Source: an uncultured Acidobacteriota bacterium (GTDB taxonomy: Bacteria; Acidobacteriota; Thermoanaerobaculia; Gp7-AA8). Taken from it: a stretch of 64,000 nucleotides of DNA. Below, in pieces: positions 28,241 through 61,327 of the stretch. Location: contig CALMZP010000083.1 in assembly GCA_937870635.1 (NCBI GenBank), positions 5,100 through 69,099 of the forward strand, given 5' to 3'. Position 1 is the first letter of the stretch, and each line of letters opens with the position of its first letter. The position numbers and the translations under genes were made by a program. Under the pieces are notes generated by a model that searched no databases, was not told the DNA's origin, and saw only the letters and a list, made by a program, of their open reading frames with translations.

Positions 28241-28268
28241 CGTCACTCCCAAGGTCAGGTTCCAGAGG

Positions 28269-29419: not shown

Positions 29420-29535
29420 TTGATCTCCTCGGTTGTAAATGGATGGACCCCGAAATTGGAAATAACAGTATAACCCGACCCCCGGCCCGGCCGTGAGCCC
29501 CCTCACGGTCTGTGGTCAGCTTCAGTGATCAGCGG

Positions 29536-34225: not shown

Positions 34226-34233
34226 GCCGTTTG

Positions 34234-34316
34234 GATCCTGGACCCTGGACCTTGGAATTGAGAGTCGAATGAGTACTCACGTCATCCTCGGCCGCGAAGA
34301 CGGTCGAAGGACCTCC
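34234..34316. repeat. GGACCTTG-like units plus a half copy of the cacgtcatcc...gaaggacc core
   Basis: gatcctggaccctggaccttgg, then cacgtcatcctcggccgcgaagacggtcgaaggacctcc. Confidence 0.45.
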
Positions 34317-34384
34317 GGTTCCGCTCTGGATTGTTTCACAGCCTCTCAGTGTGGCGCCGGCGCCCTCGCCGGCGCCCGAGAAGC

Positions 34385-35254: not shown

Positions 35255-35387
35255 TCCTGTTCTCCTCGCTGCGAATTTGGGCAGCTATCAACAACTCCCA
35301 TGCAGCGAATACGTGCGGCATGGCATTTCGGAATAACTTGACGTCATCGCTTCATGAGCATACTTTTTCGGAAACCACAATCAATCA

Positions 35388-36649: not shown

Positions 36650-36655
36650 AACCCC

Positions 36656-39043: not shown

Positions 39044-39044
39044 G

Positions 39045-39191
39045 GATTCACCACAGAGGCACAGAGGACACAGAGTTCGTTCCGAAAGGCCATGCGTTTT
39101 ACGAAGGGATCCGTCACTCGTCACTCGTCACTCGTCACTCGTCACTCGTCACTCGTCACTCGTCACCCAAAGGTCCAAGGTCCGAGGTCAC
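39045..39191. repeat. mixed tandem repeats: CACAGAGG x3, CGTCACT x7, then (C)AAGGTCC units
   Basis: Visible in sequence immediately after the CHAT gene stop. The CGTCACT-AAGGTC combination also occurs at 28226-28250. Confidence 0.6.
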
Positions 39192-39231
39192 GGGGTCCAG
39201 CCGAGAGGTGAAAGCCGGTTAAGATGCGCCC

Positions 39232-40245
39232 GTGTTCTCGCGCGACCGCCTTCTCCAGCTCACTGAAGCCATGCAGGGGAAGCTCGTGGTCGTCTACGGC
39301 GACATCGTGGCGGACCGCTTCATCTACGGAACACCGAAGCGGATCTCTCGCGAAGCGCCGGTGCTCATCCTCCGTCAGTATCGCGACGACGTGCTTCTGG
39401 GCGGTGCGGGCAACGCGATGAACAACATCCTCGCGCTCGGCGGACTCCCGATCCCGGTCTCCGTGGTCGGCGCCGACGCGGAAGGCGATGCGCTGATCGA
39501 GCGCCTGACCGCGCAAGGCATCGACTGCAGCGGCGTCCTGCGGGTCGAGCGCTACAAAACTCCCACGAAAGTGCGCATCCTCGGCGGCATGCCTCACGCG
39601 GCGCGGCAGCAGATCGTGCGCTATGACATCGAGGATTCACTCACGATCACCGAACAGGAAGCCGATCGCTTCGCGTGGCTGCTGCGCGATCAGATCTCGA
39701 TCTGTCACGCGGGACTCATCAGCGACTACGGTTATGGGGTCGTCACGCCGTCGCTCGCCTCGAACCTCACCGGATACTCGAGGGGAAAACCGGTGACGCT
39801 CGATTCGCGGTATGACCTGTTGCGGTATCCCGATGTCACCGCCGCCACGCCAAACGAAGAGGAGGCGGCGGCCGCGGCTGGAATGTCCCTCGCGGAGGAT
39901 GACGGCGGCGAGAATGCGGAGTTCGTGGGACAGACGCTGCAGCAGAGCCTCGATTGCGAAGCGATTCTGATCACGCGCGGAAGCCGCGGGTCAATGCTGC
40001 TCGAGCGCGGCGGGAGGCCGGTGTTCCTTCCCGTTCACGGCACCGACCAGGTGGCGGATGTCACCGGCGCCGGGGACACGGTCATTGCCTCGTTTACGCT
40101 CGCACTCGCCGCCGGTGGCTCGTACCTCGAGGCCGCGAAGCTGGCCAATTACGCCGGCGGCATCGTGGTCATGAAGATGGGAACGGCCACCGCATCGAAC
40201 GAAGAGCTTCGCCACGCGATCGAGCGCGACGAGGGGCTGGAGTAA
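39232..40245 (+). CDS. hldA: D-glycero-beta-D-manno-heptose-7-phosphate kinase (RfaE domain I / HldA-like, PfkB family)
   Basis: PfkB ribokinase-like signature (GGAGNAMNN; DVTGAGDTVIASFTLALAAG). GTG start. Confidence 0.85.
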   Translation: MFSRDRLLQLTEAMQGKLVVVYGDIVADRFIYGTPKRISREAPVLILRQYRDDVLLGGAGNAMNNILALGGLPIPVSVVGADAEGDALIERLTAQGIDCSGVLRVERYKTPTKVRILGGMPHAARQQIVRYDIEDSLTITEQEADRFAWLLRDQISICHAGLISDYGYGVVTPSLASNLTGYSRGKPVTLDSRYDLLRYPDVTAATPNEEEAAAAAGMSLAEDDGGENAEFVGQTLQQSLDCEAILITRGSRGSMLLERGGRPVFLPVHGTDQVADVTGAGDTVIASFTLALAAGGSYLEAAKLANYAGGIVVMKMGTATASNEELRHAIERDEGLE

Positions 40246-40312
40246 TTTTGGATTTGCGATTTTGGATTTTGGATTGAACCCCAAATCCAAAATCCAAAAT
40301 CCAAAATCGAAA
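40246..40312. repeat. TTTTGGA/TCCAAAA inverted-arm palindrome between hldA and hldC
   Basis: ttttggatttgcgattttggattttggattg aacccc aaatccaaaatccaaaatccaaaatcgaaaa. Confidence 0.75.
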
Positions 40313-40801
40313 ATGACAACAAACGCTCCTATCGTCGAAGAAGCTGAGTTGACCCGAATCGTCGAAGAAGAACGCCGGGCCGGACGCACGATTGCATTCG
40401 CCAACGGCGTCTTCGACATCCTCCACGTCGGCCATGTGCGTTATCTCCAGGGAGCGGCCGCGGTCGCGGACCGGCTGATCGTGGCGGTCAACAGCGACGA
40501 ATCGGTCCGCGAGCTCAAGGGCGCGGGCCGCCCGGTGACGGGTGAGCGGGAACGCGCCGAGATCATCTCCGCGATCCGCGGTATCTCCTGGGTCACCATC
40601 TTCCGGGAGAAGAGTCCGGCGCGCCTTCTCGCCGTGCTGCGCCCCGACTTTCAGGCGAAGGGGACTGATTACACGCCCGACACCGTGCCGGAGGCCTCCA
40701 TCGTGCGAGGGTACGGCGGGAAGGTCGTGATCGTGGGCGATCCGAAGGATCACTCGACGACCGATCTCCTCCATCGGATGAAGAAGAGCCCGGGGAACTG
40801 A
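40313..40801 (+). CDS. hldC: D-glycero-beta-D-manno-heptose-1-phosphate adenylyltransferase (RfaE domain II / HldC-like)
   Basis: Cytidylyltransferase-like motif (FANGVFDILHVGHVRYLQ...ISW). Start at MTTNAP, because the upstream ORF part lies in the palindrome. Confidence 0.85.
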   Translation: MTTNAPIVEEAELTRIVEEERRAGRTIAFANGVFDILHVGHVRYLQGAAAVADRLIVAVNSDESVRELKGAGRPVTGERERAEIISAIRGISWVTIFREKSPARLLAVLRPDFQAKGTDYTPDTVPEASIVRGYGGKVVIVGDPKDHSTTDLLHRMKKSPGN

Positions 40802-45693: not shown

Positions 45694-45897
45694 GAGTAGG
45701 AGGAAGCAATGCCGACATTCGAGTGGAAGGTCGGCAAGTTCATGCCGAGCGTAGCGAGGCATCAGCGGTACCGGGCGGAGCAGGCGCGACCTGCTGGAAG
45801 GTAATGAGTCAGGGCTTCGGGTTCCGGAGATCCCTCGCTTCGCTCGGGATACAGTCGTTGGAGTAGGAGGAAGCAATGCCGACATTCGAGTGGAAGG
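45694..45897. repeat. 37-bp perfect direct duplication of the pilC RBS, start and first 7 codons, flanking a 130-bp insert with a ccctcgcttcgctcggga hairpin
   Basis: gagtaggaggaagcaatgccgacattcgagtggaagg at 45694-45730 and again at 45861-45897. The upstream copy opens a 31-codon decoy ORF. Confidence 0.7.
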
Positions 45898-47078: not shown

Positions 47079-47107
47079 CACCCGGCGACAGAAGCATGCA
47101 TTCGGAA

Positions 47108-47138
47108 GGGGCGACGGAAACGTCGCCCCGATTTTTTG
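47108..47138 (+). terminator. rho-independent terminator after pilC
   Basis: ggggcgacggaaacgtcgccccgatttttt, followed by a second small hairpin catccctcgcttcgctcgggatg. Confidence 0.65.
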
Positions 47139-47206
47139 CATCCCTCGCTTCGCTCGGGATGTGCGTATGCTTAATACGAGCAGCACCAGGCACCAGGCAC
47201 ACGATC

Positions 47207-48868
47207 ATGAACACCATGCCCACAGATGCCCGGATGATGATGGCCATCCGGGTCATCGTCGTGACGACGCTCCTCCTCGTCACGCTGATCATTCAGTACA
47301 CCGTCACCGAGATCCTGCCCATCAACTATCTCTATCTCGTCGCAGGTCTCACTTACCTTCTCACGCTCACTTACATCGCTCTCGGGCGGCTCATCCGGTC
47401 GCGCGAGATCAACCTGCTGATCCAGATCGGCGGCGATCTCCTGGTGGAGACGCTCCTGGTGTACTTCACGGGCGGCCTCGATTCGCCCTTCTCCTTTCTC
47501 TATCTCGTCTCGATCATCGCCGCGTCGATGCTTCTCTATCGCCGTGGCGGCCTTCTGGCTGCTTCCGGGGCGGTCATCCTCTACGGCCTGCTCGGAGACC
47601 TGATGTACTACGGGATTCTTCCTCTTCCGGAGCAGACCTGGTTCATCCCCACGCCGTGGACGTCGTCTCGTCTCTACTTCAACATGGCCACGAACTTCGC
47701 GGGCTTTTACGCCACGGCGCTGCTGACGTCGCTCATCTCGGAAAAACTTCAGAAGACCTTCAAGGAGCTCGACGCCAACCGTCAGAACCTGGCCGAACTC
47801 CGCGCGCTCAACCAGAACGTCATCGAGTCGATCCCCTCCGGCCTCATCACGATCTCGACTTACGGGTCGGCGTCGTTCATCAATCCCGCCGGCTGTCAGA
47901 TCCTTCAGACCCAGGCGCACGAAGTCCTCGGCCGTCACGTCACCGAGCTGGCGTTCTTCACGGTCGAAGAGTGGAGTGAGGTCCGCGAGGCGCTCGACGG
48001 CGGCGCGCTCGTGCGCCGCGAGAAGGAGGTCGATGTTCCTGGCGGCCGCCGCACGATTGGATTCGCTCTGACGCCGTTGCGGACGCTCGACGGGAAGGCG
48101 TCCGGGTACACGCTCATCTTTCAGGACCTCACCGAGATGAAGAAACTGGAAGGGGAGATTCGACTCAAGGACCGCATGGCCGCGGTGGGCGAGCTGTCGG
48201 CCGGCATCGCCCACGAGATCCGGAATCCGCTCGCCGCGATCGCGGGATCCGTCCAGGTTCTCAAGAACTCGAAAGCGCTCACGCCACAGGAAGAGCGTCT
48301 GATGTCGATCGTGCTCAAGGAGTCGGAGCGGCTCAACAAGACCATCGCCGACTTCCTCCGCTTCGTCCGTCCCCAGGAAAAGCGCGCGGCGGAATTCGAC
48401 GTCGCTGCGTCGCTCTCCGAAACGCTCGATCTCCTGGCGAACTCTCCCGAACTGCAGAAGCACGAGATCCGGCGCGAGATCGAGCCGCCTTCGTTCCATA
48501 TCGTCGGCGATGCCGATCAGATCCGTCAGGTGTTCTGGAATCTCGTCCGCAATGCCGTGCAGGCGATGCCTGAGGGCGGCGTCATGACGGTGAGGACCGA
48601 GGTGGAGGCCGAGACGTATCGGATCGTGTTTGCGGACAGCGGACGCGGGATGTCGCGTGGCGAGCTGCAGCGCCTCTTTCAACCGTTCCGAACTTCGTTC
48701 CCTTCGGGCACCGGTCTCGGCATGGCAATCTGCTATCGCATCGTGCAGGAGCACGGCGGCTCGATCGAAGTGCAATCGTGGCAGGGCGGGGGGACGGCGG
48801 TGACCGTCGTTCTGCCAGCGACGGTGTCGGAGCAGGGAGCCCGTCCCCTGCCTGCAGCTAGATTTTAG
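47207..48868 (+). CDS. PilS-like sensor histidine kinase (polytopic membrane N-term, PAS, HisKA, HATPase_c)
   Basis: Six-TM N-terminal domain like PilS, H-box GIAHEIRNPL, and N/G1/G2 boxes. Start at MNTMPTD. Confidence 0.8.
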   Translation: MNTMPTDARMMMAIRVIVVTTLLLVTLIIQYTVTEILPINYLYLVAGLTYLLTLTYIALGRLIRSREINLLIQIGGDLLVETLLVYFTGGLDSPFSFLYLVSIIAASMLLYRRGGLLAASGAVILYGLLGDLMYYGILPLPEQTWFIPTPWTSSRLYFNMATNFAGFYATALLTSLISEKLQKTFKELDANRQNLAELRALNQNVIESIPSGLITISTYGSASFINPAGCQILQTQAHEVLGRHVTELAFFTVEEWSEVREALDGGALVRREKEVDVPGGRRTIGFALTPLRTLDGKASGYTLIFQDLTEMKKLEGEIRLKDRMAAVGELSAGIAHEIRNPLAAIAGSVQVLKNSKALTPQEERLMSIVLKESERLNKTIADFLRFVRPQEKRAAEFDVAASLSETLDLLANSPELQKHEIRREIEPPSFHIVGDADQIRQVFWNLVRNAVQAMPEGGVMTVRTEVEAETYRIVFADSGRGMSRGELQRLFQPFRTSFPSGTGLGMAICYRIVQEHGGSIEVQSWQGGGTAVTVVLPATVSEQGARPLPAARF

Positions 48869-48928
48869 ATTTTGGATTTTGGATTTTGAGACGAATCCAA
48901 AATCCAAAATCCAAAATCTAAAATCCAA
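48861..48928. repeat. TTTT(A/G)GA inverted-arm palindrome
   Basis: gattttagattttggattttggattttgag acg aatccaaaatccaaaatccaaaatctaaaatcc. Confidence 0.75.
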
Positions 48929-48958: not shown

Positions 48959-49981
48959 GTGACCGACCGCATCCTGACTCCCACCGCCGATCCCGAAGAG
49001 CTCCAGACCGAACTTTCCCTCCGCCCCAAGAAGCTCCGCGAGTACATCGGGCAGCAGAAGGTGAAAGCCAATCTGGAGATCTCGATCGCGGCCGCGCGGA
49101 AACGGGGTGAGGCGCTCGACCACGTCCTTCTCTTCGGCCCGCCCGGACTCGGCAAGACCACGCTCGGAAACATCATCGCCAACGAGATGGACGCGAATAT
49201 CCGGACGACTTCCGGCCCGGCGCTCGAGCGTCCGGGAGATCTGGTCGCCATCGTCACGAATCTGGAGGCCGGCGAAGTGCTCTTCATCGACGAGATCCAC
49301 CGTCTGCCGGCTCAGGTTGAAGAAGTCCTGTACTCGGCGATGGAAGACTTCTACGTCGATGTGGTGATCGGTCAGGGCCCGGCTGCGCGCACGCTCAAGG
49401 TCGAGGTTCCGCGGTTCACGCTGATCGGTGCGACGACCCGGGCCGGACTTCTCACCGCCCCGCTGCGCGCGCGCTTCGGGATCGTTCACCGTCTCGACTT
49501 CTATGACGTCGATTCGCTGGAGGTCATCGTCCGGCGGTCCGCGGAGATCCTGAACATCCCCATTACGCTCGAAGGTTCGAAGGAGATCGCCCGCCGGTCG
49601 CGCGGTACGCCGCGAATCGCGAACCGCCTGCTGCGCCGCGTCCGTGATTACGCCGAAGTGAAGCGCGAAGGTCGCATCGACGTGGAGATCGCGCGCGAAG
49701 CGCTGCACATGCTCGAAGTCGATGACTACGGCCTCGATGACGTCGATCGCAAGCTGCTGACCGCAATCATCGAGCGCTTCAGTGGCGGCCCCGTCGGCCT
49801 CAACGCCCTAGGATCATCCGTCGCCGAAGATCGGGGAACGATCGAAGATCTCTATGAGCCCTACCTGATCCAGATCGGCTTCCTGCAGCGAACCCCCCGA
49901 GGCCGCGTCGCGACGAAGCTCGCCTACGATCACCTCGGTTACAAACTGGGGGCGACGAGAAAGCAGGAGGAGTTGTTTTGA
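48959..49981 (+). CDS. ruvB: Holliday junction branch-migration helicase RuvB
   Basis: LRP..L..YIGQ, Walker [10 protein letters not shown], and the RuvB C-terminal winged helix. Confidence 0.95.
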
Positions 49982-50092
49982 AGTTTGTTCCCCAGTTCAT
50001 GCTGAGCGAAGCGAAGCATCTCCGGTGCACCTGCTGCCATGAACTTTGTTCCGCGTCAGTGCACCGGAGATCCTTCGCTTCGCTCAGGATAG
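49981..50092. repeat. nested palindrome (catgctgagcgaagcgaagcatctccggtgcac ... gtgcaccggagatccttcgcttcgctcaggata)
   Basis: Visible in sequence between ruvB and the convergent methyltransferase. Confidence 0.65.
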
Positions 50093-50677
50093 ACTCGTGT
50101 CCCTCAAGTACCACTCGAGCGGTTCGGCAAGGTAACCCGGTGCCGTGCCCCCGCGGCCCCATGCTTCGACGATGAGGATGTGCGAGAGGCTGTCGAAGTC
50201 GGGATTCTGCTCGTGGCTCTCCAGACCCCGCAGTTCCGGATGCTCGCTCTCGCCGTAGCTGCACCGCACCACTTCGGCGAAACCGGCGGCGCGCAGCGTT
50301 GCTGACAGCGTTCCCCAGTTGTAGAGGAACTGGTGTCCCCATCCACGAAAGGCCCGGTTGATGCCGAACGCGCCGAGGACCTGCTGCTCCTCGGTGAGGA
50401 CGCGACGGTAGTGGGACGCCCAGACCCAGTCGAGATTCGGCGTGGAGAGGCGCAGAACACCGTCATCGCGCAGAGCGCGCCGGCATTCGCGGAACAGCGA
50501 GGCCGCATCCGCGTAGTGCAGATGCTCGATGAAGTGCTCGGCGAAGATGAACGCAACGTTCTCGAAGGGAAAGCCTGTCGTGACGTCCAGAACCTGGTCG
50601 ACCCCGGGGTGAGGGTCACGGTCGATGTTGACCCAGCCGTCGAGGTGATGGGGTCCCGATCCGATGTGAAGGCGCAT
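50084..50677 (-). CDS. class I SAM-dependent methyltransferase
   Basis: Motif I near the N-terminus (LHIGSGPHHLDGWVNID), RDDGVLRLSTPN. The ATG at 50677 is preferred; the longer ORF runs through the TTTTGGA palindrome. Confidence 0.7.
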   Translation of the reverse strand: MRLHIGSGPHHLDGWVNIDRDPHPGVDQVLDVTTGFPFENVAFIFAEHFIEHLHYADAASLFRECRRALRDDGVLRLSTPNLDWVWASHYRRVLTEEQQVLGAFGINRAFRGWGHQFLYNWGTLSATLRAAGFAEVVRCSYGESEHPELRGLESHEQNPDFDSLSHILIVEAWGRGGTAPGYLAEPLEWYLRDTSLS

Positions 50678-50698
50678 GTGGGGCGGTATGATGGCAGT

Positions 50699-50810
50699 GA
50701 TTTTAGATTTTGGATTTTGGATTTTGGATTTTGGATTGGTATTTCTTCGATCCATCATGCGGAATCCAGGTCGAAGAGAAATCCAAAATCCAAAATCCAA
50801 AATCCAAAAT
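50699..50810. repeat. TTTTGGA inverted-arm palindrome with 40-nt spacer
   Basis: gattttagattttggattttggattttggattttggattgg ... gaaatccaaaatccaaaatccaaaatccaaaa. Confidence 0.75.
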
Positions 50811-52173
50811 GATTCTCCTGGTCGTCGTGTTGCTCGCAGTGGGTGTGCCGGTCGCAGCGCAGGCGGCCCAGGATCCCTATCAACTTCCTGAGACACTTGC
50901 CGCCGCTCGGCGGTTCGACGAGGCGGAGGCCGCGTACAGGCGGGGGCTTCGTGAGCGTCCGAACGACTGGCGCCTTCGGCTCGGCCTGGCGCGAGTTATC
51001 CTGTGGGACGGCCGTTACCGGGAGGCGGACAAGGCATTCGCAGCTCTCGTCGCCGAGCGGCCTGCTGACGACGATGCGCTACTTGGATATGCCCAGGCGG
51101 CCTACTGGAGCGGCGATTTTCGCCGTGCGCGCCGGAGGTACGAGCGTCTTCTCGAAGTCGATCCCGCGCATGCGGAAGCGAAGAAAGCACTCTCCGATAT
51201 CGCGCTGCTGAGCGCTCCCGGGTATGAGGTCGGCGCAACCTTTCGCGACGATTCGCAGCCCTATCGGGTATCGATGATGCGTGCGAAGGTCTCATACTTC
51301 TCCGACCCGCTCGTGAGATGGGACGTGATCGGCGGAGTGGGCCAGGTTCCCGACGGCGGGAGCTCGATGGCCAGCGTGGGAGCGGGAGTCTCCGCCACCT
51401 TCCCGCGGGTGCGATCGAGGGTCGAGGCGAGTGGCGAGCGATTCCGATTCCCCGACGGATTCAGCGCGACCCTCGGCGAAGTCACGCTCACCCGCACCCT
51501 GCCGGCCCAGAGCGCGCTGGTCCTGTCGGCCCGACGCACGCCATTGCTCGGAACGGTTTTTTCCGTCGACGACCACGAGACGGTGTCCCAGTACTCGCTT
51601 TCGTGGCGGCGCGATCCCGCGGCGCGCTGGCTGGCCGCGGTGGGCGCGCACTCGCTCGATTACTCCGACGGCAACAGAGGCTCGGGTGCCGATGCCTGGT
51701 TCGTGGCTCCGGTCTTCGAGCGCGACTCGCTGATGCTTCGCGCGGGCGTATCCGCCGCATGGCGCGACACGGAGCTCGACCGCTTCCGCTTCACGACGTT
51801 CCGCTCGGAACAGGCGAGTCCCGGCGTCTGGCGGTACACGTACACCGGTGTGTACGATCCGTACTGGACGCCACACGAGCTGAAGGAGGGGAGGGTAGTG
51901 GTGGTGGCCGAGATACCGCGTCTGAAGATCCACGCGGATGCCGGCTACGCACGAGACCGCGCCCTCGGGTTCGGGCCGCGCACGGGAGCGGCACCCAACC
52001 CGCTCTTCATCCATCCGAGCATGCAGGAGCGGTCGTTCCGGCCCTGGCGTGCCGGTGCCGAAATCACGTGGCCCCTCGCGACCGGGATCGAGTTACGCGC
52101 GCGGTATGCGCACGAAGTGACCGCCTTCTACAACGCGAATGAGTTCGAAGCGAGCCTGGTCGGACGACTCTGA
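50809..52173 (+). CDS. TPR-repeat protein with predicted C-terminal beta-barrel (PgaA/BcsC-like exopolysaccharide export candidate)
   Basis: Signal peptide MILLVVVLLAVGVPVAAQA, about 150 aa of TPR helices, then alternating-hydrophobic beta-rich region ending in an aromatic residue. The functional call is inferred from domain order and the downstream GT2. Confidence 0.5.
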   Translation: MILLVVVLLAVGVPVAAQAAQDPYQLPETLAAARRFDEAEAAYRRGLRERPNDWRLRLGLARVILWDGRYREADKAFAALVAERPADDDALLGYAQAAYWSGDFRRARRRYERLLEVDPAHAEAKKALSDIALLSAPGYEVGATFRDDSQPYRVSMMRAKVSYFSDPLVRWDVIGGVGQVPDGGSSMASVGAGVSATFPRVRSRVEASGERFRFPDGFSATLGEVTLTRTLPAQSALVLSARRTPLLGTVFSVDDHETVSQYSLSWRRDPAARWLAAVGAHSLDYSDGNRGSGADAWFVAPVFERDSLMLRAGVSAAWRDTELDRFRFTTFRSEQASPGVWRYTYTGVYDPYWTPHELKEGRVVVVAEIPRLKIHADAGYARDRALGFGPRTGAAPNPLFIHPSMQERSFRPWRAGAEITWPLATGIELRARYAHEVTAFYNANEFEASLVGRL

Positions 52174-52207
52174 GATCTTCCGGCATCGGCGCGCTGCGCC
52201 GATCCGG

Positions 52208-53710
52208 ATGTGGGAGCGGGTGCTCATCGCCGTGCTCATTTTTCTCGCGCTGCAGAGCGTCGTCTTTTTCGGCGCGTGGTGGTTCCAGCTCCGCAACGTC
52301 AGCAACGTCGCGCTGTTTGTTCTCCTGTCGATCGCCACGTGGTACGGCATCTTCCGGATGTTCGTCGGCTGGTACAACCTCTTCCATCTTGAACACCCGC
52401 CGGAAAAGGCCGCGCCCGAAGGTCTGTCGGTTGCAATCTTCACGACCTCCTCTCCCGGTGAGCCGTACGACATGTTCGTGCGCACACTCGATGCCGCGCG
52501 GCGGATCCGCTATCCGCACACCACGTATCTTCTCGACGACACGCGCGACCCGCGCTTTGCGGCGCTTGCCGCCGAGATGGGCGCGGTCCATCTCGAGCTG
52601 GTCGGCTTTCCCGGCGCGAAGGCGGGAAAAATCAACGAAGCGCTCAAGATGACGAAAGAGGATTTCATCCTGGTCCTCGATCCTGACCACATCCCCTTCC
52701 CCGAGTTCCTCGACCGCGTCCTCGGTTACTTCGAAAACGAATCGGTCGGCTTCGTCCAGGTCTCGCAGGCGTACTACAACCCGCCGGAATCATTCGTTGC
52801 GCGTGGTGCCGCGGAGCAGACGTTCACTTTCTACGGTCCGATCATGCAGGGCATGCACGGAACCGGAACGGCAGTGGCGATCGGTGCGAACTGCACGTTC
52901 CGCCGGACGGCGCTCGAGTCCATCGGCGGCCATGGCATCGGCCTGGCCGAGGATCTGGTGACGTCGATTCGCCTGCATGCGGGTGGGTGGGAGTCTGTGT
53001 ACGTCCCCGAGATCGTGTCGCGCGGGCTCGTTCCGTCCGACCTCGGATCGTTTCTCAAACAGCAGCTCAAATGGTCGCGCGGAGTGCATGAGGTTCTCTT
53101 CCATGAGTACCCGCGCGCGTTTCGCCGGCTGTCGTTCCACCAGAAGATCTCCTACTTCATGATCGGCAGTTATTACCTGGTCGGTCTCACTTCGCTCATC
53201 TACTTCACCATTCCGCTCCTTTACCTGTGGGTCGGGGCCCAGCCGGCAGCGATGATCCTGGCCGAGTATCTGGAGCATGCCATTCCGCTGGCCCTGCTGG
53301 GTCTGGCGATCTATCGTCTGTCTCAGCGCTGGCTCTGCGATCCTGTGCGCGAGCGCGGGTGGCACTGGCGGGGTACTCTGCTCAAGATCGGCGCCTGGAA
53401 CGTCTTCCTGCGCGGACTCTGGTTCGCGATCCGGGGAATTGACGTTCCTTACATTCCGACGGCCAAGGAGCGCAAGTTTGGCGAATTCTGGCGGCTGGCC
53501 AGACTTCCGCTCGGAGTGATAGCAATCTCTGCCGCGACGGTTGGGATCGTGGTATATCAACGGTTATTCGTACTGGACGAGACCCACGTTCGCATCACCA
53601 CGGAAGCAACCTGGGCGATGGCTGGTTTCCTGATCATCAACTCGATTTTCATGAGCGGGAGACTGTGGGCGGCCTGGCAGGACCGGGTGCGCAGGGAACC
53701 TGAAGATTGA
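52208..53710 (+). CDS. GT2-family processive polysaccharide synthase (cellulose-synthase/PgaC-like)
   Basis: DDT(RD) and DPDH acidic motifs, QQLKWSRG (QxxRW), and TM helices on both sides of the catalytic domain. Confidence 0.8.
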   Translation: MWERVLIAVLIFLALQSVVFFGAWWFQLRNVSNVALFVLLSIATWYGIFRMFVGWYNLFHLEHPPEKAAPEGLSVAIFTTSSPGEPYDMFVRTLDAARRIRYPHTTYLLDDTRDPRFAALAAEMGAVHLELVGFPGAKAGKINEALKMTKEDFILVLDPDHIPFPEFLDRVLGYFENESVGFVQVSQAYYNPPESFVARGAAEQTFTFYGPIMQGMHGTGTAVAIGANCTFRRTALESIGGHGIGLAEDLVTSIRLHAGGWESVYVPEIVSRGLVPSDLGSFLKQQLKWSRGVHEVLFHEYPRAFRRLSFHQKISYFMIGSYYLVGLTSLIYFTIPLLYLWVGAQPAAMILAEYLEHAIPLALLGLAIYRLSQRWLCDPVRERGWHWRGTLLKIGAWNVFLRGLWFAIRGIDVPYIPTAKERKFGEFWRLARLPLGVIAISAATVGIVVYQRLFVLDETHVRITTEATWAMAGFLIINSIFMSGRLWAAWQDRVRREPED

Positions 53711-54873
53711 CGCCGAAACGACTCTATCTGACCGTGTTTTTTGCGCTTGGCTGGCTGCTGGCCATCGGCGTCGCATTTCAGTTCGGCCTTGCCAGTGCAG
53801 TCGGGGCTGCCTACCGGAAAGCGGCTTCGAGGCTCGACTGGATCAGCCAGAAGGCATCCGACGCCGAAGGGGCCGCTCTCACGAGCGTCCGTCAGAACGC
53901 GCGGCGGGATTATCTCGAGCCGCTGAAACCGACTCTCACGTCGGTGGCCGCGCTGAAGAACCCCCCGAAGATGCTGTTCGGCGCGTACGACGGCGGGTTT
54001 CCTCACGACACCTCCGGATTCGCGAAGCTCGAGAGCGATGTCCGCTATCGGTTTCCCATCATCTCCTTCTACTCCGCCTGGGGCGATCAACCGGACCAGC
54101 AGTTTCCCGTGAGGATGGTCGAGACAATCGACCGGCTCGGCTCGGTGCCGATGATCACGTGGGAGCCGTGGGTGACGGACTTCGACCCCCGCCTTCGCCC
54201 GAATCTGCCATCGAAGTCGGATCGCGAGTACGCCAGTCTCGCCGCGATCGGGAAGGGTGAGTACGACTTCTACATCTCACCGTGGGCCGAAGCGGCGGCG
54301 CGGTTCGGCAAGCCGATCTTCCTGCGCTTCGCTCACGAGATGAACGATCCTTATCGCTATCCGTGGGGACCGCAGAACGGGAACCGCCCCGACGACTTCA
54401 TCGCCGCGTGGCGCCGCGTTCACGACATTTTCCAGAAGAGAGGCGCCACCAACGTCATCTGGGTTTGGTCGCCTCACATCTCGATGCCATGGTTCGAGTA
54501 CTACTATCCCGGCGACCACGTCGTCGACTGGGTCGGTATGGGCATTCTCAATTACGGAACGGTGGCGTCCTGGTCTCGGTGGTGGAGCCTTCACCAGATC
54601 CTGGACAAGGCGTATCCGACGCTCGCCAAGTTCAACAAACCAATGATGATCGCGGAAATGGGCACGCTGGCCCAGGGTGGAGACGTCCTCGTCTGGTATC
54701 AGCAGGCGTTCTACCAGCTCGAGCACACGTACGGCCGCGTCCGCTCGATCATCTTCTTCAACCAGGCCAACGATGTCACAATGTCCACTTATCCGTTGAA
54801 CTGGACGGTCGGCCAGGATCCCCGCGCTGCAGAATTCATCGCGAAAGAACTGGCCAGGCTGTCAGCTCAGTGA
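53707..54873 (+). CDS. glycoside hydrolase, GH26-like (clan GH-A)
   Basis: FLRFAHEMN (acid/base region) and MMIAEMG (nucleophile region). TTG start overlaps the GT2 stop. Confidence 0.55.
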   Translation: MTPKRLYLTVFFALGWLLAIGVAFQFGLASAVGAAYRKAASRLDWISQKASDAEGAALTSVRQNARRDYLEPLKPTLTSVAALKNPPKMLFGAYDGGFPHDTSGFAKLESDVRYRFPIISFYSAWGDQPDQQFPVRMVETIDRLGSVPMITWEPWVTDFDPRLRPNLPSKSDREYASLAAIGKGEYDFYISPWAEAAARFGKPIFLRFAHEMNDPYRYPWGPQNGNRPDDFIAAWRRVHDIFQKRGATNVIWVWSPHISMPWFEYYYPGDHVVDWVGMGILNYGTVASWSRWWSLHQILDKAYPTLAKFNKPMMIAEMGTLAQGGDVLVWYQQAFYQLEHTYGRVRSIIFFNQANDVTMSTYPLNWTVGQDPRAAEFIAKELARLSAQ

Positions 54874-54887
54874 AAGGTCCCGGTCCC

Positions 54888-56504
54888 ATGTCCCGTCGGC
54901 TCGTAGCCATAGCTCTCTTCGCAGCAATTCTTCCCCTCACCGCGGCAGCTCAGACCGCGTACATATCGGGCGTGGTTCGCAACACTGCTGGTGCTGCGCT
55001 CGGAGATGTGACTGTGCAGGCTTACAGTCCTGCGGGCTTCGCGGTCAACACTGCGACAACAACGCCGCAAGGCGACTACACGCTGGTGGTCCCGAGCGGG
55101 TCTTATCGCGTGCTCGCCTACGATAACAGCGGTACGTGGGCCGTCAGCTATTACGGCAACGCTCTGTCTTACGAAGCATCTGAGGCGATCAACGTCACCG
55201 ATGGTCAGCGAATCACGGTGAATTTCGTTCTGAGTCCCGGTCGGAGCATCTCCGGGTTCGTCGGGAACGCCGCAACGGGTGCTCCTCTGGCCGGCGCGGT
55301 CGTCGCCGCCTATAACCTCGATGGATCGCGTCGCACGTTCGTCCGTACGAACAACGACGGGTCCTTCAACCTCACGGTTCCCGCTGGTTCGTACAAGATC
55401 GCCGCATACCACGAGGTCGCGCCCTACATTCCGACGTTCTTCCGGAATGAGCGTCTTTTCGGTCTCGCGGACACGGTGACGCCGCCCGCCAACAACATCA
55501 ATTTCGGCCTCGGGCCGGGCACGAAGCTCCTCGGATCGGTGAAGGAAAAAGTCACGGGGCTTGCACTTCCGTCCATGCAGGTGGTTGCCTACGACCTTCA
55601 AGGGAACGTGCAGTTCCGCACGGAGACGAATCCGGCGGGGAACTTCGCGTTCGTCCTTCCTCCGGGATCATTCAAATTTGCGGTCGAGGATCGCGGTGGT
55701 AACTATCAGACGACGTTCTTCCGCGACTCGACGTCGTTCGCATCCGCGGCCAGCGTCGTCGCCGATGCGTCGGCTCCGCTGCTGAATTTCACGGTTGCGC
55801 GCGTGCCGGATGCGACCCCGCTCACGACGTTGTTCATCCCCGGGATCATCCACGCAGAGAACAGCGCCGCGGGAACCTTCTTCAAGACCGACGTCTGGAT
55901 CCAGAACCCCGGCGACGCACCGCTGACGGTCACGGCCGTTTACCTTCCAGGCGGTCAGGACAATTCCGCCGCGACCGGCCTGCCGGTCATCGTTCCAGCC
56001 CGTGGTCAGCTGGCTCTCACCGATATCGTGCCGAGCTTGTTCGGCACGACCGGCGCGGGTGCCCTCCGTCTAGAAGCCGAAAGAGCGTTCCGCGCGACGA
56101 GCCGCACTTACAACGTCCCCTCGAACTCGGCACAGATCGGTACCTTCGGCCTCTCGATTCCGGGGCAGTCGCTCGGTGCATCGCTCGGCCGGGCAACGCT
56201 GGCCGGTCTCGCGTACAACTCCGCCAGCCGGACCAATATCGGACTCATGAACCCTCAGCCGATATCGCTTGACATCAAAGTGGAGGTTTTCTCGTCCACT
56301 GGCGCGCTCCTCGGATCGCGGACCTTCACGCTGAAGCCCGGTCAGTGGGATCAGCCCAACGTCACCGCCGTGGTTGGTGAAGGCGCGAACTTCAATCAGG
56401 CCTACGCGGTCATCAGCTCATCGCAGGGATCGTTCTTCTCGTACGCCGCCGTGGTCGACTCGAAGAGCGGCGACGGAACGTTCATCCTGCCGAGCGGAGA
56501 CTGA
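54888..56504 (+). CDS. secreted protein with repeated carboxypeptidase-regulatory-like (CarbopepD_reg) domains
   Basis: Signal peptide, then at least 4 repeats of the G.V....G.PL.GA.V.A...G motif. Confidence 0.6.
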   Translation: MSRRLVAIALFAAILPLTAAAQTAYISGVVRNTAGAALGDVTVQAYSPAGFAVNTATTTPQGDYTLVVPSGSYRVLAYDNSGTWAVSYYGNALSYEASEAINVTDGQRITVNFVLSPGRSISGFVGNAATGAPLAGAVVAAYNLDGSRRTFVRTNNDGSFNLTVPAGSYKIAAYHEVAPYIPTFFRNERLFGLADTVTPPANNINFGLGPGTKLLGSVKEKVTGLALPSMQVVAYDLQGNVQFRTETNPAGNFAFVLPPGSFKFAVEDRGGNYQTTFFRDSTSFASAASVVADASAPLLNFTVARVPDATPLTTLFIPGIIHAENSAAGTFFKTDVWIQNPGDAPLTVTAVYLPGGQDNSAATGLPVIVPARGQLALTDIVPSLFGTTGAGALRLEAERAFRATSRTYNVPSNSAQIGTFGLSIPGQSLGASLGRATLAGLAYNSASRTNIGLMNPQPISLDIKVEVFSSTGALLGSRTFTLKPGQWDQPNVTAVVGEGANFNQAYAVISSSQGSFFSYAAVVDSKSGDGTFILPSGD

Positions 56505-56509
56505 CTTTT

Positions 56510-56775
56510 GAAGGATGAAGGATGAAGGATGAAGGATGAAGGATGAAGGATGAAGTGGAAACGACGAGCCACGTCATCCTGAGCCGCGCAGACGGCGAAG
56601 GACCTCAGAGTACGTAACTTGAGGTCCTTCGCTGTCTGCGCAGCCCAGGATGACGTGGTGAACTTCCTTCATCCTTCGTCCTTCATCCTTCATCCTTCAT
56701 CCTTCATCCTTCATCCTTCATCCTTCATCCTTCATCCTTCATCCTTCATCCTTCGTCCTTCATCCTTCATCCTTC
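56510..56775. repeat. composite palindrome: GAAGGAT x8 / ATCCTTC x13 arms around a cacgtcatcctgagccgcgcagacggcgaaggacctcaga ... tgaggtccttcgctgtctgcgcagcccaggatgacgtg core
   Basis: Visible in sequence; the largest element in the window (about 265 bp). Confidence 0.8.
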
Positions 56776-59293
56776 ATCCTTTCTTGTGCACCTTGTTCTG
56801 CGCTACGAACGCTGCCAGCGCTTCGGCTTTCAGGGGGCGGCTGACGTAGTAGCCCTGCATTTCCGAGCAGCCGCGCGACGCCAGGAACTCCCACTGCTCG
56901 GCGGTCTCGATGCCTTCGGCCACGGTGCGCAGTTTCAGGCTCGCTGCCAGATGGAGGACCGCTTCGACAATCGGCGGATCGATGACGGCTTTCGTTGCGC
57001 CGGACACGAATGAACGGTCTATCTTGACCGTGCTGATCGGAAACCTCTTCAGGTACGTCAACGAGGACTGGCCGGTCCCGAAGTCGTCGAGGGCAATCCC
57101 GATCCCGCGGTCCCGCAGGCGCTGCAGCGTGGCGATCGTCCATTCCGATTTCTGCATCGCCATCGTCTCGGTGATCTCCAGTTCGAGTGATTCCGGAGGA
57201 AGACCGGTCTCTTCGAGCGCGCGGTCGATCATGCCGAGGAAGTCGCGCTGGTGGAACTGGCGGGCGGAGACGTTGACGCCTACACGCAGCGGGATCATCC
57301 CCATCTGATGCCACTCCCGGGTCTGTCGCGCCGCTTCGCGCAGAACCCATTCGCCGATCGGAACGATGAGTCCGGTGTATTCAGCGAGGGAGATGAAACC
57401 GGAGGGCTCGATCAGGCCGGCATCGGGATGATTCCAGCGCACGAGAGCTTCCACGGCCACGACCTGGCGCGTTTTCGAGTCGACCTGCGGCTGGTAGTAG
57501 ACGACGAACTCTTCGCGCTCGATGGCGTGCTTGAGGCTTTCTTCCATCGACATGCGGCCGAGCGCCTTGCGCGTGATCGCGCCGCTGCTGAAGAACTGGT
57601 ACGACGCGCCGCCACGCTCCTTGACGCGGTACATCGTTCCGTCGGCGTTCTCGAGCAGGGTTTCCGGATCTTCGCCGTCGGCGGGATACATGGCCACGCC
57701 GATACTCGTCGTGACGCGCACTTCATCCTCACCGATGACGAACGGCTGCTGAATCTGCTCGATCACCTTCGCCGCAACAGCCTCGGCATCCTCGGGCGTG
57801 TTGATGTCCGGAATGAGGATCGTGAATTCGTCGCCGCCGATGCGACCCAGTGTGTCTTCCTGACGCAGGCAGCCTCCGAGGCGCTCGGCAACCATCTGCA
57901 GGAGCTGGTCGCCGGCGGCATGTCCCAGGGTGTCGTTGACGACCTTCAGATCATCGAGATCGAGGAACATGACGGCCAGCGTCTGCTGCCGCCGCCGCGC
58001 GTGCGCGACCGCCACGGTCAGGCGGTCGAGGAACAGCATCCGGTTCGGCAGTCCGGTCAGGGCATCGTGATACGCCTGATACTCGACTTCCTGCTCCGTG
58101 CGCTTTCGATCGGTGATGTCGAGGACGATCCCTTCGATGACAGGGTTCTCGTCGTGTTCCGTGGTCGAAGCGGTGAGGGTTTCCAGCACCCAGATCACGT
58201 CGCCGTCGCGGCGGAGCAATCGCGCTTCGTGGTTGACCGCGGCGCCCTTCTCGAGGAGCTGATCCATGACCTGCTGCCGTTCGGCAGGGTCGAAGTACTG
58301 GATCGACCCGTTGTCGTCCATCAGCTCATCCGCCGATTCGTAGCCGAGCATCCGCGCGGCTGAGTCATTGCAGCTGATGATCCGTCCGTCGACGCTGGAG
58401 ATGTAGACCCCGGAGAGGTTGCGCTCGAAGAGCATCCGGTAGCGCCGCTCGGCGCGCCGCCGCTCCGTCATCTCCTCGCGGAGCTCACGCGTGCGCACTT
58501 CCACCCGTTCTTCGAGCGTCTTGTTCCATGAGGCCAGCTCGTCCTGGGCCTGTTCGAGCCGGCCGATCATCGTGTTGAATGCGCGCGCGAGCTGAGAGAC
58601 TTCGTCGCGGCCGGACACGTGGGCGCGCTCGCTGAGGTTCCCGCCGGCGATGCGCTTGGCGGTCTCGGCGATATGCCGCAACGGCCTGATGATCGCGCCG
58701 CTGATGGCGATGGCGAACAGCATCCCGATCGCGAAGATCCCGATTGCGACCGTCGTCACCGTGCGGCGGTTGGCGGCGACCTCCTGCTGCAGGCGATCCG
58801 TGGTGAGGCCGAGGTACATGACGCCGATGTTTCCGCCCTCGATGCGGAGCGGCACGCGCATCTGGTAGATCCGGCCATCCTGCGTCAGGCCGCCGCGAGG
58901 CCGTTCGCCAATGGCTTGATATCGCCGGCCCACGACCTCGCGGGGGATCATCGTGATCTGCCTGTAGTTCACCGCATCGGCGAGCTGGACGTTGTAGACG
59001 GCGAATGGTTGATCGCCGGTGCGCTCGAACACGACGATGTATGCGACATCGGGATTTTCCCGAAGGGCATTCAAAGCGCGATAGACGCCGCTGGAATCGC
59101 CCGTGGCCAGCGTGGGTGCGATGTTCAGCGCGGCCATCTGGGAGACCGCCCAGGCTTCGTCCGTCGTGATTCGCGCGGCCTGCTCGCGCAGGCGTGCCGG
59201 AAAGTAGATATAGATGAAGACCGAGATGAGGCCGATGAGTAGAGTGGTCGCCAGCGCGACCTTCGTCTGGATCGAGGAGCCGGGGATTCTCAT
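56774..59293 (-). CDS. sensor diguanylate cyclase/phosphodiesterase (periplasmic sensor, HAMP, PAS, GGDEF, EAL)
   Basis: TM-HAMP, PAS, GGDEF (RIGGDEF) and EAL (EALVRW, DDFGTG) motifs. Confidence 0.9.
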   Translation of the reverse strand: MRIPGSSIQTKVALATTLLIGLISVFIYIYFPARLREQAARITTDEAWAVSQMAALNIAPTLATGDSSGVYRALNALRENPDVAYIVVFERTGDQPFAVYNVQLADAVNYRQITMIPREVVGRRYQAIGERPRGGLTQDGRIYQMRVPLRIEGGNIGVMYLGLTTDRLQQEVAANRRTVTTVAIGIFAIGMLFAIAISGAIIRPLRHIAETAKRIAGGNLSERAHVSGRDEVSQLARAFNTMIGRLEQAQDELASWNKTLEERVEVRTRELREEMTERRRAERRYRMLFERNLSGVYISSVDGRIISCNDSAARMLGYESADELMDDNGSIQYFDPAERQQVMDQLLEKGAAVNHEARLLRRDGDVIWVLETLTASTTEHDENPVIEGIVLDITDRKRTEQEVEYQAYHDALTGLPNRMLFLDRLTVAVAHARRRQQTLAVMFLDLDDLKVVNDTLGHAAGDQLLQMVAERLGGCLRQEDTLGRIGGDEFTILIPDINTPEDAEAVAAKVIEQIQQPFVIGEDEVRVTTSIGVAMYPADGEDPETLLENADGTMYRVKERGGASYQFFSSGAITRKALGRMSMEESLKHAIEREEFVVYYQPQVDSKTRQVVAVEALVRWNHPDAGLIEPSGFISLAEYTGLIVPIGEWVLREAARQTREWHQMGMIPLRVGVNVSARQFHQRDFLGMIDRALEETGLPPESLELEITETMAMQKSEWTIATLQRLRDRGIGIALDDFGTGQSSLTYLKRFPISTVKIDRSFVSGATKAVIDPPIVEAVLHLAASLKLRTVAEGIETAEQWEFLASRGCSEMQGYYVSRPLKAEALAAFVAQNKVHKKG

Positions 59294-59328
59294 TGGTGAG
59301 AGGCCGATTCTACGCCCGGACGGAAGTG

Positions 59329-61124: not shown

Positions 61125-61327
61125 CCACGTCACCCTGAGGCGCGAACACGCCGAAGGGCCGCAGGATGCGTGACATGAGGTCCTTCGCCCGCGCTTCGCC
61201 GGCAGGATGACGTGAACAGCGAGCGCCGCGACCTTCAGGTTTCTTAGAAGCGTAGGCTGGGTGGCGCCAAACATCATGCCTCGTGCCGCCCATCCCCCAG
61301 GTCCCTCGCTCACGCTCGGATGACAGG
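61125..61327. repeat. two palindromic-element copies (cacgtcaccctgagg...caggatgacgtg, and a half copy of the 2809-2907 element)
   Basis: Visible in sequence upstream of nadB. Confidence 0.55.

Follow-up and report, generated by a model that had tools for sequence, protein, structure and literature searches.

Inverted arrays of tandem heptamers and nested REP-like doublets in the intergenic spacers of an Acidobacteriota lineage

How does one genome come to carry, in many of its intergenic spacers, hairpins that share one architecture and are built from different short units? This question is raised by a 64,000-nucleotide (nt) stretch of DNA from an uncultured soil Acidobacteriota bacterium (Thermoanaerobaculia, Gp7-AA8; assembly GCA_937870635.1, contig CALMZP010000083.1, positions 5,100 to 69,099), hereafter the window, and in particular by the composite element found at 56509-56781, in which two tandem arrays of a 7-nt unit face each other in inverted orientation around a further palindrome. 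The architecture is already described in bacteria, although unnamed and unexplained, and the elements presented here are a further member, in Acidobacteriota. The comparative resolution that related genomes offer adds to their interest. Their diversity and fast turnover are genuine, as is some local generative component. The explanation that we put first, tentatively and at slightly less than even chances, is that they are hypermutable hairpin repeats acting at the DNA level and spreading as families, with doublets of a repetitive extragenic palindromic (REP) element landing in their loops.

The element at 56509-56781 consists of two nested palindromic repeats. The outer one is an inverted pair of arrays, (TGAAGGA)6.7 on the left and (TCCTTCA)16.7 on the right; the inner one is the palindrome CACGTCATCCTGAGCCGCGCAGACGGCGAAGGACCTC-loop-GAGGTCCTTCGCTGTCTGCGCAGCCCAGGATGACGTG, made of two 37-nt REP-like units placed head to head, with a spacer of 14 nt on the side of the left arm and one of 5 nt on that of the right arm. 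The arms can also be read as (GAAGGAT)6.7 and (ATCCTTC)16.7. Its parts are the following (both arms from Tandem Repeats Finder, TRF, and a scan of our own):

56509-56555, + strand: 5' arm, (TGAAGGA)6.7, every copy perfect
56570-56606, + strand: REP-like unit of the long type, left half of the loop doublet; covariance-model match of 61.9 bits, with a covarying internal hairpin
56621-56657, - strand: REP-like unit of the long type, right half of the loop doublet; covariance model
56663-56781, + strand: 3' arm, (TCCTTCA)16.7, including two CCTTCGT variants

A preliminary description of this DNA had ended the element at 56775, and the right arm in fact reaches 56781. The 5' arm begins 5 nt past the stop (56504) of a CarboxypepD_reg-domain gene (54282-56504, Pfam), and the outermost heptamer of the 3' arm provides the TGA stop (56774-56776) of a HAMP-PAS-GGDEF-EAL gene (56774-59293, - strand), the element occupying the whole spacer of this convergent pair. 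Folded as single-stranded DNA, 56505-56785 reaches -108 kcal/mol against a shuffle mean of -32 (z = -20.7), and the doublet 56570-56657 alone folds at -79.5 kcal/mol (z -13.7). In a relative whose RuvB protein is 88% identical (L005), the ortholog of the GGDEF/EAL gene has a different C-terminal end and is followed by a spacer of ~50 nt with a small plain hairpin (L005 16750-16830).

Four contigs from other samples (L001-L004) encode a 100% identical GGDEF/EAL protein of 839 amino acids. The fourth array unit next to it is GAAGGAT in two of them and GAAGGAC in the other two and in the window, which is a strain-level change within the array. All four contigs terminate inside the array; indeed, exact-protein look-ups for strain variants returned only short contigs ending within arrays, with this one strain-level difference and no copy-number series. 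Since short-read contigs end in this way, the copy number of the 16.7-unit arm is uncertain. Such ends could also suggest that the elements are artefacts of assembly or sequencing, in the form of collapsed or chimeric repeats. We give next to no credence to this idea: the gene-array junction was confirmed by the four independent samples, and dozens of metagenome-assembled genomes that are independent of one another show the same architecture, among them multi-megabase contigs and one assembled chromosome (L023, L027, L038), most likely built from long reads, as do unrelated metagenome contigs.

Throughout the window, TRF and our own scan identified 15 arrays of period 7 with at least three copies and none of period 5, 6, 8, or 9, and none was obtained in 20 shuffles of the window. 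Period-7 arrays lie at 1145-1177, 11644-11678/11684-11714, 31453-31479/31593-31619, 34232-34256, 39112-39166, and 39168-39189 in its left part, and at 40247-40275/40280-40314, 42477-42507/42569-42600, 48859-48888/48894-48925, 50699-50737/50779-50810, and 56509-56555/56663-56781 in its right part. The repeats are thus present where the preliminary description had placed them, and they fold strongly. It had spoken of 7-8-mer units; all of them are 7-mers, its 8-mer GGACCTTG being GGACCTT plus a G. Its picture of one architecture, abundant, intergenic and made from many 7-mer units, holds, except that not every array is paired: inverted pairs occupy seven loci (11644, 31453, 40247, 42477, 48859, 50699, and 56509), with a miniature version at 28215, while the arrays at 1145 and 34232 and a three-array mosaic at 39052-39189 lack an inverted partner. 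The folding z scores range from -7.7 to -10.8 for the other inverted heptamer pairs and from -3.0 to -13.7 for the palindromic cores, and the small 28215 hairpin has a z of -3.7. Besides the element described above, the inverted pairs are:

31453-31619: second composite; (GGTGCTT)3.9 arm, REP doublet 31495-31531 (+ strand)/31556-31592 (- strand), (CACCAAG)3.6 arm; between divergent FHA (- strand) and MCP (+ strand) genes
11644-11714: (GATTTTG)5, 5-nt loop, (AATCCAA)4.4; between the coaX stop and the ggt start (genes on the - strand); z -8.1
40247-40314: (TTTTGGA)4, loop, (AAATCCA)4.6; between the pfkB stop and the next start codon
42477-42600: (TGGACCT)4.4, 61-nt structured spacer, (TCCAAGG)4.6; z -7.7; no element at the orthologous L005 site
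48859-48925: (GATTTTG)4.3, 5-nt loop, (AATCCAA)4.6; between the stop of a PilS-like kinase gene and the ruvB start; z -10.8
50699-50810: (GATTTTG)5.6, 41-nt spacer, itself palindromic, (AAATCCA)4.6; z -8.2

We compared the window with 80 loci around ruvB with 10-kb flanks (L005-L084, 1.1 Mb in total), taken from metagenome-assembled genomes labelled Thermoanaerobaculia or Acidobacteriota. The RuvB of the window (48959-49981) is at most 88% identical to the proteins of these relatives; the 59 loci with a RuvB at least 74% identical were treated as the clade and the 21 more distant ones as the outgroup. Gene order is conserved in relatives for the 39-50 kb and 59-63 kb parts of the window. The clade (786 kb) holds 133 period-7 arrays, i.e., 16.9 per 100 kb, for 6, 23, 17, and 1 arrays of periods 5, 6, 8, and 9, respectively, and the outgroup (318 kb) holds five, i.e., 1.6 per 100 kb. 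An inverted partner (at least two units, within 350 nt) accompanies 118 of 153 arrays (77%), against 3 and 6 for reversed and complemented control patterns. Because both the clade counts and the inverted pairing recur in relatives, we are dealing with a lineage-wide rule and not with a local oddity.

This lineage constitutes a natural experiment, with dozens of sequenced relatives, a conserved gene order and a variable content in each spacer. Indeed, across syntenic genomes an orthologous spacer may contain arrays, of which no fewer than 10 different units were counted, or else a plain GC hairpin or a REP doublet, or it may be empty, as three of these spacers show:

pilC-PilS spacer (delimited by the stop of pilC and the start of the PilS-like kinase gene; window 47079-47095): inverted GGGCTCA arrays in L005; AGTGCTG in L009 and L011; GAGTGAC/T in L010; AGCTCTC-type in L016, L018, L027, and L036; GGGCCGA in L020, L034, and L042; GAGGATT in L025; GTTCTTA in L047; GTTGCTG in L049 and L052; a plain GC hairpin with T-run in the window (47105-47135), L008, and L045; a REP doublet in L033 and L059
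after the ruvB stop: REP doublets in the window, L006, and L022; GCCGGAA arms in L005; GTTGTCC in L019; AATTCAG in L054 and L058; AACGCAG in L055; AAGCCAG in L056; simple hairpins in L007 and L010
pfkB to next gene: a TTTTGGA element in the window and L005, with different loops; GTTGTCG-type arrays in L027, L033, and L051; no element in six genomes, where stop and start overlap

The window and L005 have an element in common at just one of six compared spacers. In the close pairs L009/L011 and L049/L052, the unit is kept, and the copy number, the point variants and the loop differ. Relatives thus do not carry identical elements at all loci: orthologous spacers vary, and even strains with an identical flanking protein differ in their array. 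Because the same spacer holds different contents in syntenic relatives, a tree can be used to reconstruct how elements are born and lost, how their units drift and how they spread. At the pfkB spacer, we also noticed that the stop and the next start overlap (ATGA/GTGA) in relatives without element (L011, L020, L036, and L045), and that in the window (40243-40318) the hairpin sits exactly between stop and start with no Shine-Dalgarno sequence left; the base of the 40247-40314 hairpin would place the two codons together.

The units themselves come in families. In the window, TTTTGGA is used at four loci and GGACCTT at four; adjacent spacers frequently share one unit family; and AGCTCTC-type arrays ending in ...CAGGG are found in six species, at different spacers (L016, L018, L020, L027, L036, and L042). 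On the other hand, the loops are all different, in the four TTTTGGA elements of the window as in the 14 inverted TTTTGGA elements among the metagenome matches listed, and no flanking (target-site) duplication was seen at heptamer hairpins. We conclude that the unit families outlive species and move between spacers, and that they are neither copies of one fixed sequence nor MITEs (miniature inverted-repeat transposable elements) of fixed sequence. Loop divergence alone does not exclude the movement of whole hairpins, since orthologous copies also differ in their loops. The idea of ordinary non-autonomous transposons (MITEs), in which tandem heptads serve as terminal inverted repeats moved by an insertion sequence located elsewhere in the genome, would account for arm sequences and, in subsets, inner boundaries shared within families, for the presence/absence polymorphism at orthologous sites and for the defined arm length, and it has a parallel in Geobacter, where the distance between ISGme8/9 and such arrays is fixed (PMC2700814). 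We nevertheless regard it as quite unlikely, given the unconserved internal sequence of the families, spacers varying from 4 to 320 nt, arm copy numbers that are variable, with arrays differing between strains, and the lack of target-site duplications at heptamer hairpins and of a transposase in the scanned window open reading frames (ORFs). When inverted arrays 0.4-5 kb apart were searched for an autonomous element lying between them, the matches were separate elements of the same family in neighbouring spacers, and no insertion sequence.

What, then, is the palindrome enclosed by the arms at 31453 and 56509? Each of its halves is a small hairpin, a5-GA-b-loop-b'-GA-a', in which the internal loop consists of tandem G-A and the 5' tag reads CGTC or TGTC. 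As an anchored GAGC...GCGA regular expression was too unspecific in this GC-rich DNA, it was replaced by nhmmer and by a covariance model built from 12 units, with which 1.17 Mb were searched. The model gave 54 matches, 14 of them in the window, most being +/- pairs 15-100 nt apart; in the window, singletons lie at 34278 and 47140. In the alignment, fitted to the model, the 9-bp interrupted stem is paired in 92.2% of cells, for 79.7% when shuffled and no more than 54% when the partners are slid, and changes on both sides are seen in eight of its nine pairs. G4, T5, and C6 of the tag are invariant in alignment A1, CGTC being found in 9 of 12 long-type units, and GGTC, AGTC, or TGTC in the rest. 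The conserved core noted in the preliminary description is therefore present, not as a single type but as three subtypes: long (31495, 34278, 56570, and 61126), short (45742/45830, 47140, and 49999/50070), and third (2807/2882 and 61298). Outside the two composites and the 34232 array, the window copies are:

2807-2911: REP-like doublet of the third subtype (GTCATCTCGAGCGTGAGCGAGGGACC); z -8.8
45694-45897: short-type REP doublet in an insertion; units 45742-45762 (+ strand) and 45830-45850 (- strand)
47140-47200, unit 47140-47160 on the - strand: single short-type REP unit plus (GCACCAG)2.6, adjoining a plain terminator-like hairpin
49999-50090: short-type REP doublet directly past the ruvB stop; z -10.4
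61126-61327: long-type REP doublet, 61126-61162 (+ strand) and 61177-61214 (- strand), and a third-type half unit, 61298-61327 (- strand)

This core is a REP-like element of the CGTC-tagged kind (Di Nocera et al. 2013, PMC3733652), comparable to the REP doublets forming hairpins (REPINs; Bertels and Rainey 2011, PMC3116915). The exclusion of CRISPR, REP, and MITE identities in the preliminary description thus stands for the first, the elements being 7-nt contiguous units in inverted blocks and not 24-48-nt direct repeats with unique spacers of similar length, and for fixed-sequence MITEs, but, as regards the core, not for REP. With the CGTC REPs, the core shares a short extragenic hairpin, a 5' CGTC/TGTC tag, head-to-head doublets, subtypes, heterodimers, a location downstream of genes, and the lack of an adjacent transposase; it differs from them by its conserved tandem G-A internal loop and by a stem longer than the 8-9 bp of CGTC-1 to 4, and Acidobacteriota are not among the phyla listed for these repeats (PMC3733652). 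A cognate REP-associated tyrosine transposase (RAYT, a Y1 transposase) flanked by repeats defines GTAG REPINs and is reported absent for CGTC REPs. Among ~40 scanned window ORFs we found no transposase, RAYT, or other candidate enzyme, an associated RAYT not having been looked for genome-wide. A literature search for the core sequence gtcatcctgagc gave unrelated primer sequences only.

The core is a separate element, because it is found inside arms of different units: doublets lie within heptamer arms in at least eight cases, and the arm units are different each time. It had been proposed that the GAAGGAT arm derives from the core's own sequence (GAAGGAC). This is not general, since composites with the same core have unrelated arm units (GGTGCTT, AATTCAG, AATGACG, AACGCAG, and AAGCCAG). 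Moreover, the presence of one core inside arms of different units within one genome supports some local generative component, as suggested in the preliminary description, the dedicated enzyme that it evoked not having been found. One insertion points to movement of the REP doublet. On both sides of the 130 nt at 45731-45860, which carry a short-type doublet, stand the same 37 nt in direct orientation and without a mismatch (45694-45730 = 45861-45897); they comprise the ribosome-binding site of the pilC (T2SSF) gene and its first eight codons. The insertion appears to be very recent. A flanking duplication of 37 nt is unusually long. We also observed that right-hand REP arms end in ...GGGATAAACT, GGATAGACT, or GGATACAGT (window 50085-50100 and 45845-45860; spacer upstream of ruvB in L005, L010, L012, L013, and L018), that these ends resemble a -10 box (TAnnnT), and that they are located just upstream of ruvB in many relatives; to judge by these motifs, a promoter element may be contained in the short-type REP or arise with it.

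The arms obey several regularities. In 51 inverted pairs of the clade, the median is 4.1-4.3 copies per arm, with 4-5 copies in 53 of 102 arms, and the lengths of left and right arms are correlated (rho 0.50, p = 1.6e-4), for arm-to-arm spacers of 4-320 nt. Variants mirrored in both arms, such as the one variant unit found in both arms of 48859-48925, number 15 for 0.74 expected, a count somewhat inflated since the register was picked by best score, next to 78 one-sided deviations. In the window and L005-L084, G exceeds C in the 5' arm of 31 of 35 unit classes (p = 3.5e-6) and, as the element is palindromic, this G-rich-5' polarity holds on both strands. We rejected the idea that G-first polarity is a general property of all hairpins: the ordinary hairpins of these genomes lean only weakly that way (48 vs 30, p = 0.054), which makes the rule specific to heptamer pairs. 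This polarity is that of a head-to-head telomere fusion and of the "convergent" pairs of Xanthomonas. The rule, which is general, must be accounted for by any mechanism.

Do these regularities reflect a function of the transcripts? The elements could be terminators or attenuators, 3' stem-loops protecting mRNA, or duplexes cut by RNase III and uncoupling cistrons, which slippage would build and tune. Among 44 elements, according to rough gene calls, 35 lie between co-oriented genes, 7 between convergent ones and only 2 between divergent ones, and they usually begin 0-40 nt past a stop codon, as expected in this case. Their folds are very stable, with stems of 28-35 bp, longer than RNase III needs. 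In the orthologous pilC-PilS spacer, the window (47105-47135), L045, and L008 hold classic GC hairpin plus T-run terminators, and the G-first polarity could be a constraint at the RNA level. Furthermore, most Xanthomonas arrays are transcribed (PMC4692102). On the contrary, the folding energies of 34 elements between co-oriented genes do not differ between sense and antisense (mean difference +0.35 kcal/mol, p = 0.83), nor do their G-U pairs (72 on the sense strand vs 76 on the antisense strand), in a test of limited power, with few mismatches and rough gene calls. As sense and antisense fold alike, there is no sign of a pairing maintained on the RNA of one strand. The T-run is missing from most elements; some of them, as in the pfkB spacer, separate genes that overlap in relatives without element, where a terminator would be unwanted; the 31453 element lies between divergent genes; and the recurrence of one unit at many loci per genome is left unexplained. 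Rfam 15 gave no match at the gathering score for these elements and, below it, at E < 5, only generic miRNA-precursor hairpin models; a tRNA search found none. The structured-RNA role raised in the preliminary description thus received no support, and we hold an RNA-level function to be possible but rather unlikely as the primary explanation. As a by-product, the elements could plausibly serve to terminate transcription, to stabilise the transcript or to offer a site to RNase III.

Binding of a protein was considered as well. Each heptad would bind one subunit of a DNA- or single-strand-binding protein, the arrays organising DNA or regulating their neighbours, and the candidates would be an omega-type ribbon-helix-helix protein, a nucleoid protein, or OB-fold cold-shock proteins covering ~7 nt each. 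The omega repressor, which binds contiguous 7-bp heptads, direct or inverted, is a precedent for heptad binding. Another one is the binding of heptamers by CspB (cited in PMC4679880), and sites for IHF/HU have been proposed by the Geobacter authors (PMC2700814). The strict 7-nt period, the sharp optimum of ~4 units per arm, seen also in Xanthomonas and Geobacter, and the fixed phase of the arrays all suit this idea. Nevertheless, the 51 inverted pairs of the clade represent 36 unit classes, of which one genome can hold at least five, and because of this diversity many specific binders, or none, would be needed. At a given orthologous spacer, close relatives have different units next to unchanged flanking genes, many spacers have no element at all, and no candidate binder was identified. 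Hence, we consider protein-binding arrays unlikely.

The same period and copy number are also encountered beyond the clade. A metagenome scan for the TTTTGGA unit, read as (GATTTTG)n, yielded at least 120 contigs (L086-L205) of 30%-71% GC. Among the matches listed, inverted pairing concerns only 14 of the 80 arrays examined, each located in a contig with a GC content of 55% or more and each having the G/T-rich arm 5'; the copy number peaks sharply at four full copies (71 of 129); the phase is fixed, 71% of the arrays beginning with GATTTTG and 47% ending with GATT-G; and many arrays adjoin other heptamer arrays, including, in L138, the unit TTGGTCA of the cyanobacterial short tandemly repeated repetitive (STRR) sequences. 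The idea that TTTTGGA is a special universal unit was discarded, the difference being modest: it gave 37 matches in viral contigs for 14 with a scrambled unit. As the latter is just 2.6 times rarer, the wide occurrence of TTTTGGA would only reflect a general abundance of heptamer arrays.

How would the hypermutable hairpin repeats that we favour arise and persist? First, the arms would gain, lose, and homogenise units by replication slippage; copy-number and variant differences between strains and species are observed, and slippage is their probable cause. Second, the two arms would be kept alike by copying within the hairpin, through template switching or quasipalindrome correction, as suggested by the mirrored variants and the absence of strand asymmetry. 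Third, the unit families would persist beyond species and spread to other, often neighbouring, spacers of the same genome; their distribution is a matter of observation, and the route could be hairpin transposition or recombination. Fourth, the REP doublet, a separate mobile element, would land in the loops of existing hairpins, to which point the same core in different arms, the uneven and non-complementary spacers between arm and core, and the insertion with its fresh 37-nt duplication. Finally, elements would persist only at places that tolerate a hairpin, right against stop and start codons, and be transcribed there as stable stem-loops that may act incidentally as terminators or processing sites. 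The G-rich-arm-5' rule suggests a filter, for which selection against a C-rich, Rho-loading arm in operon transcripts is a speculative candidate; selection would filter only where, and in which polarity, elements are tolerated.

Several points weigh against this explanation. No transposase, RAYT, or other candidate enzyme was found in the scanned window ORFs, and the heptamer hairpins show no target-site duplication at their flanks, so that their spread by transposition stays hypothetical. The comparative loci all come from one syntenic region around ruvB, so that the family counts are not independent genome-wide samples, and the inflation of the mirrored-variant count and the limited power of the strand test, mentioned above, count here too. 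More importantly, plain slippage predicts neither the peak at ~4 copies, nor the fixed (GATTTTG)n phase, nor the period of 7, nor the G-first polarity, and the preference for 7 nt and ~4 copies lies outside what hypermutable hairpins explain. These regularities could point instead to a protein-binding or an enzymatic constraint. In the latter case, the arms would not result from passive slippage; a dedicated process would write them where an intergenic hairpin is broken or nicked, extending the 3' ends by ~4 copies of a short G-rich unit through templated, telomerase-like, or reiterative synthesis, and the same process would have produced the STRR, Xanthomonas, and Geobacter arrays. If true, this would give a "fused-telomere" polarity (G-rich strand 5' to 3' towards the centre, on both strands), a fixed phase and a fixed copy number. 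We judge this writing process, together with its extension to the other bacteria, to be very unlikely.

The preliminary description saw no obvious named counterpart to these elements, but close ones are found in Xanthomonas, Geobacter metallireducens, and cyanobacteria. The closest description is that of the GGGAATC heptamer arrays of Xanthomonas campestris and X. axonopodis (Rehm et al. 2015, PMC4692102). There as here, ~4 units are preferred, the genome has a high GC content, the arrays lie near or overlap a stop codon, and they differ in length and presence between close species; ~75% are paired, inverted and convergent, the array rich in G being the 5' one on each strand; and they are mostly intergenic, between co-oriented genes, with ~16% convergent and 7-8% divergent locations (PMC4692102), to be compared with our 7 and 2 of 44. 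On the other hand, Xanthomonas has essentially one unit, read as a G-quadruplex former, and no nested REP doublet is described for it (PMC4692102), whereas the lineage studied here uses dozens of units, most of them quadruplex-incapable: TTTTGGA, GGACCTT, CGTCACT, GAAGGAT, GGTGCTT, AGCTCTC, and others have no run of three or more G. As the Xanthomonas-type architecture occurs with many such units, G-quadruplexes are unlikely to be the common cause.

In Geobacter metallireducens, classes 1-3 consist of 3-5 tandem 7-9-mers, e.g., GTTGCTYN x4, TCTCCGTS(Y) x3, and MTYCTGA x5 (Aklujkar et al. 2009, PMC2700814). Like ours, they comprise several unit classes per genome, mostly form pairs on opposite strands at a variable distance and are absent from the sister species; unlike ours, they include 8- and 9-mers, and some stand at a fixed distance from ISGme8/9. 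They were annotated as putative IHF/HU sites without a test, and no orthologous sites were compared (PMC2700814). The TAACTGA repeats of Beggiatoaceae and cyanobacteria (MacGregor 2015, PMC4679880) are also intergenic heptamers in 2-6 copies, sometimes with mixed units, at which assemblies break and close relatives differ; contrary to ours, they have a single unit, are nearly always direct (1 inverted in 170) and stand just upstream of start codons. Both the heptamer excess of bacteria and the STRRs of cyanobacteria had been observed earlier (cited in PMC4692102), and a tandem-repeat survey (PMC12418385) does not mention heptamers. In our literature search, no paper on this architecture in Acidobacteriota was found. 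Tandem heptamer arrays have reportedly been noted in bacteria since 1990, and their over-representation since 2007. The cyanobacterial STRRs, attributed to Mazel in 1990 and Elhai in 2008, are said to involve several heptamer units per genome, in intergenic mosaic blocks with small mobile palindromic repeats nested inside. They are mostly direct, with few inverted pairs (Nostoc; PMC4692102), whereas inverted pairs dominate here; and the cyanobacterial genomes are low-GC, while the inverted form of (GATTTTG)n occurs, among the matches listed, only in contigs of at least 55% GC.

The arrays of the window without an inverted partner, and its smallest hairpin, are:

1145-1177, + strand: unpaired array, (CTTGGAC)4.7, no clear inverted partner; upstream of a GT4 glycosyltransferase gene
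34232-34315, + strand: array and REP; (TGGACCC)3.6, then a single REP-like unit, 34278-34315 (50.9 bits)
39052-39189, + strand: mosaic of direct arrays, (CACAGAGG)2.8, (CGTCACT)7.9, and (AAGGTCC)3; no inverted partner
28215-28248: small hairpin, GAGTGAC/(GTCACTC)2, of the CGTCACT family

The three unlike direct arrays placed side by side at 39052-39189 form a mosaic that resembles cyanobacterial STRR regions. Another tandem repeat, of 13-14 nt (CGGTCAGTGATCAG x2.9), lies at 29506-29548, with a CsgG-like gene on one side and a GGDEF gene on the other; it may represent a heptamer unit that was doubled, by comparison with the GAGTGAC/GAGTGAT alternation of L010.

These elements have practical consequences for the reading of such genomes. 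As already noted in the preliminary description, they create spurious ORF extensions: three large ORFs (gamma-glutamyltranspeptidase, FAD oxidoreductase, and GT4 transferase) run through elements ahead of their Pfam domains. They also end short-read contigs, giving fragmented metagenome-assembled genomes of the clade, and insertions and deletions have them at their edges. In related metagenome-assembled genomes and in single-run assemblies (L045, L036, L059, L085, and others), many contigs end a few tens of bases from ruvB, at hairpin positions, and the elements appear to fragment the short-read assemblies of the clade. Lastly, two segments of the window are missing from most syntenic relatives, namely 34181-39225, with an extracytoplasmic function (ECF) sigma factor and a CHAT-TPR protein, and 50640-59328 (8.7 kb), with TPR, GT2, GH26, CarboxypepD_reg, and GGDEF/EAL genes; arrays or REP units are found at both edges of the first one (34232/34278 and 39052-39189), and the second one has an array at its left edge (50699).

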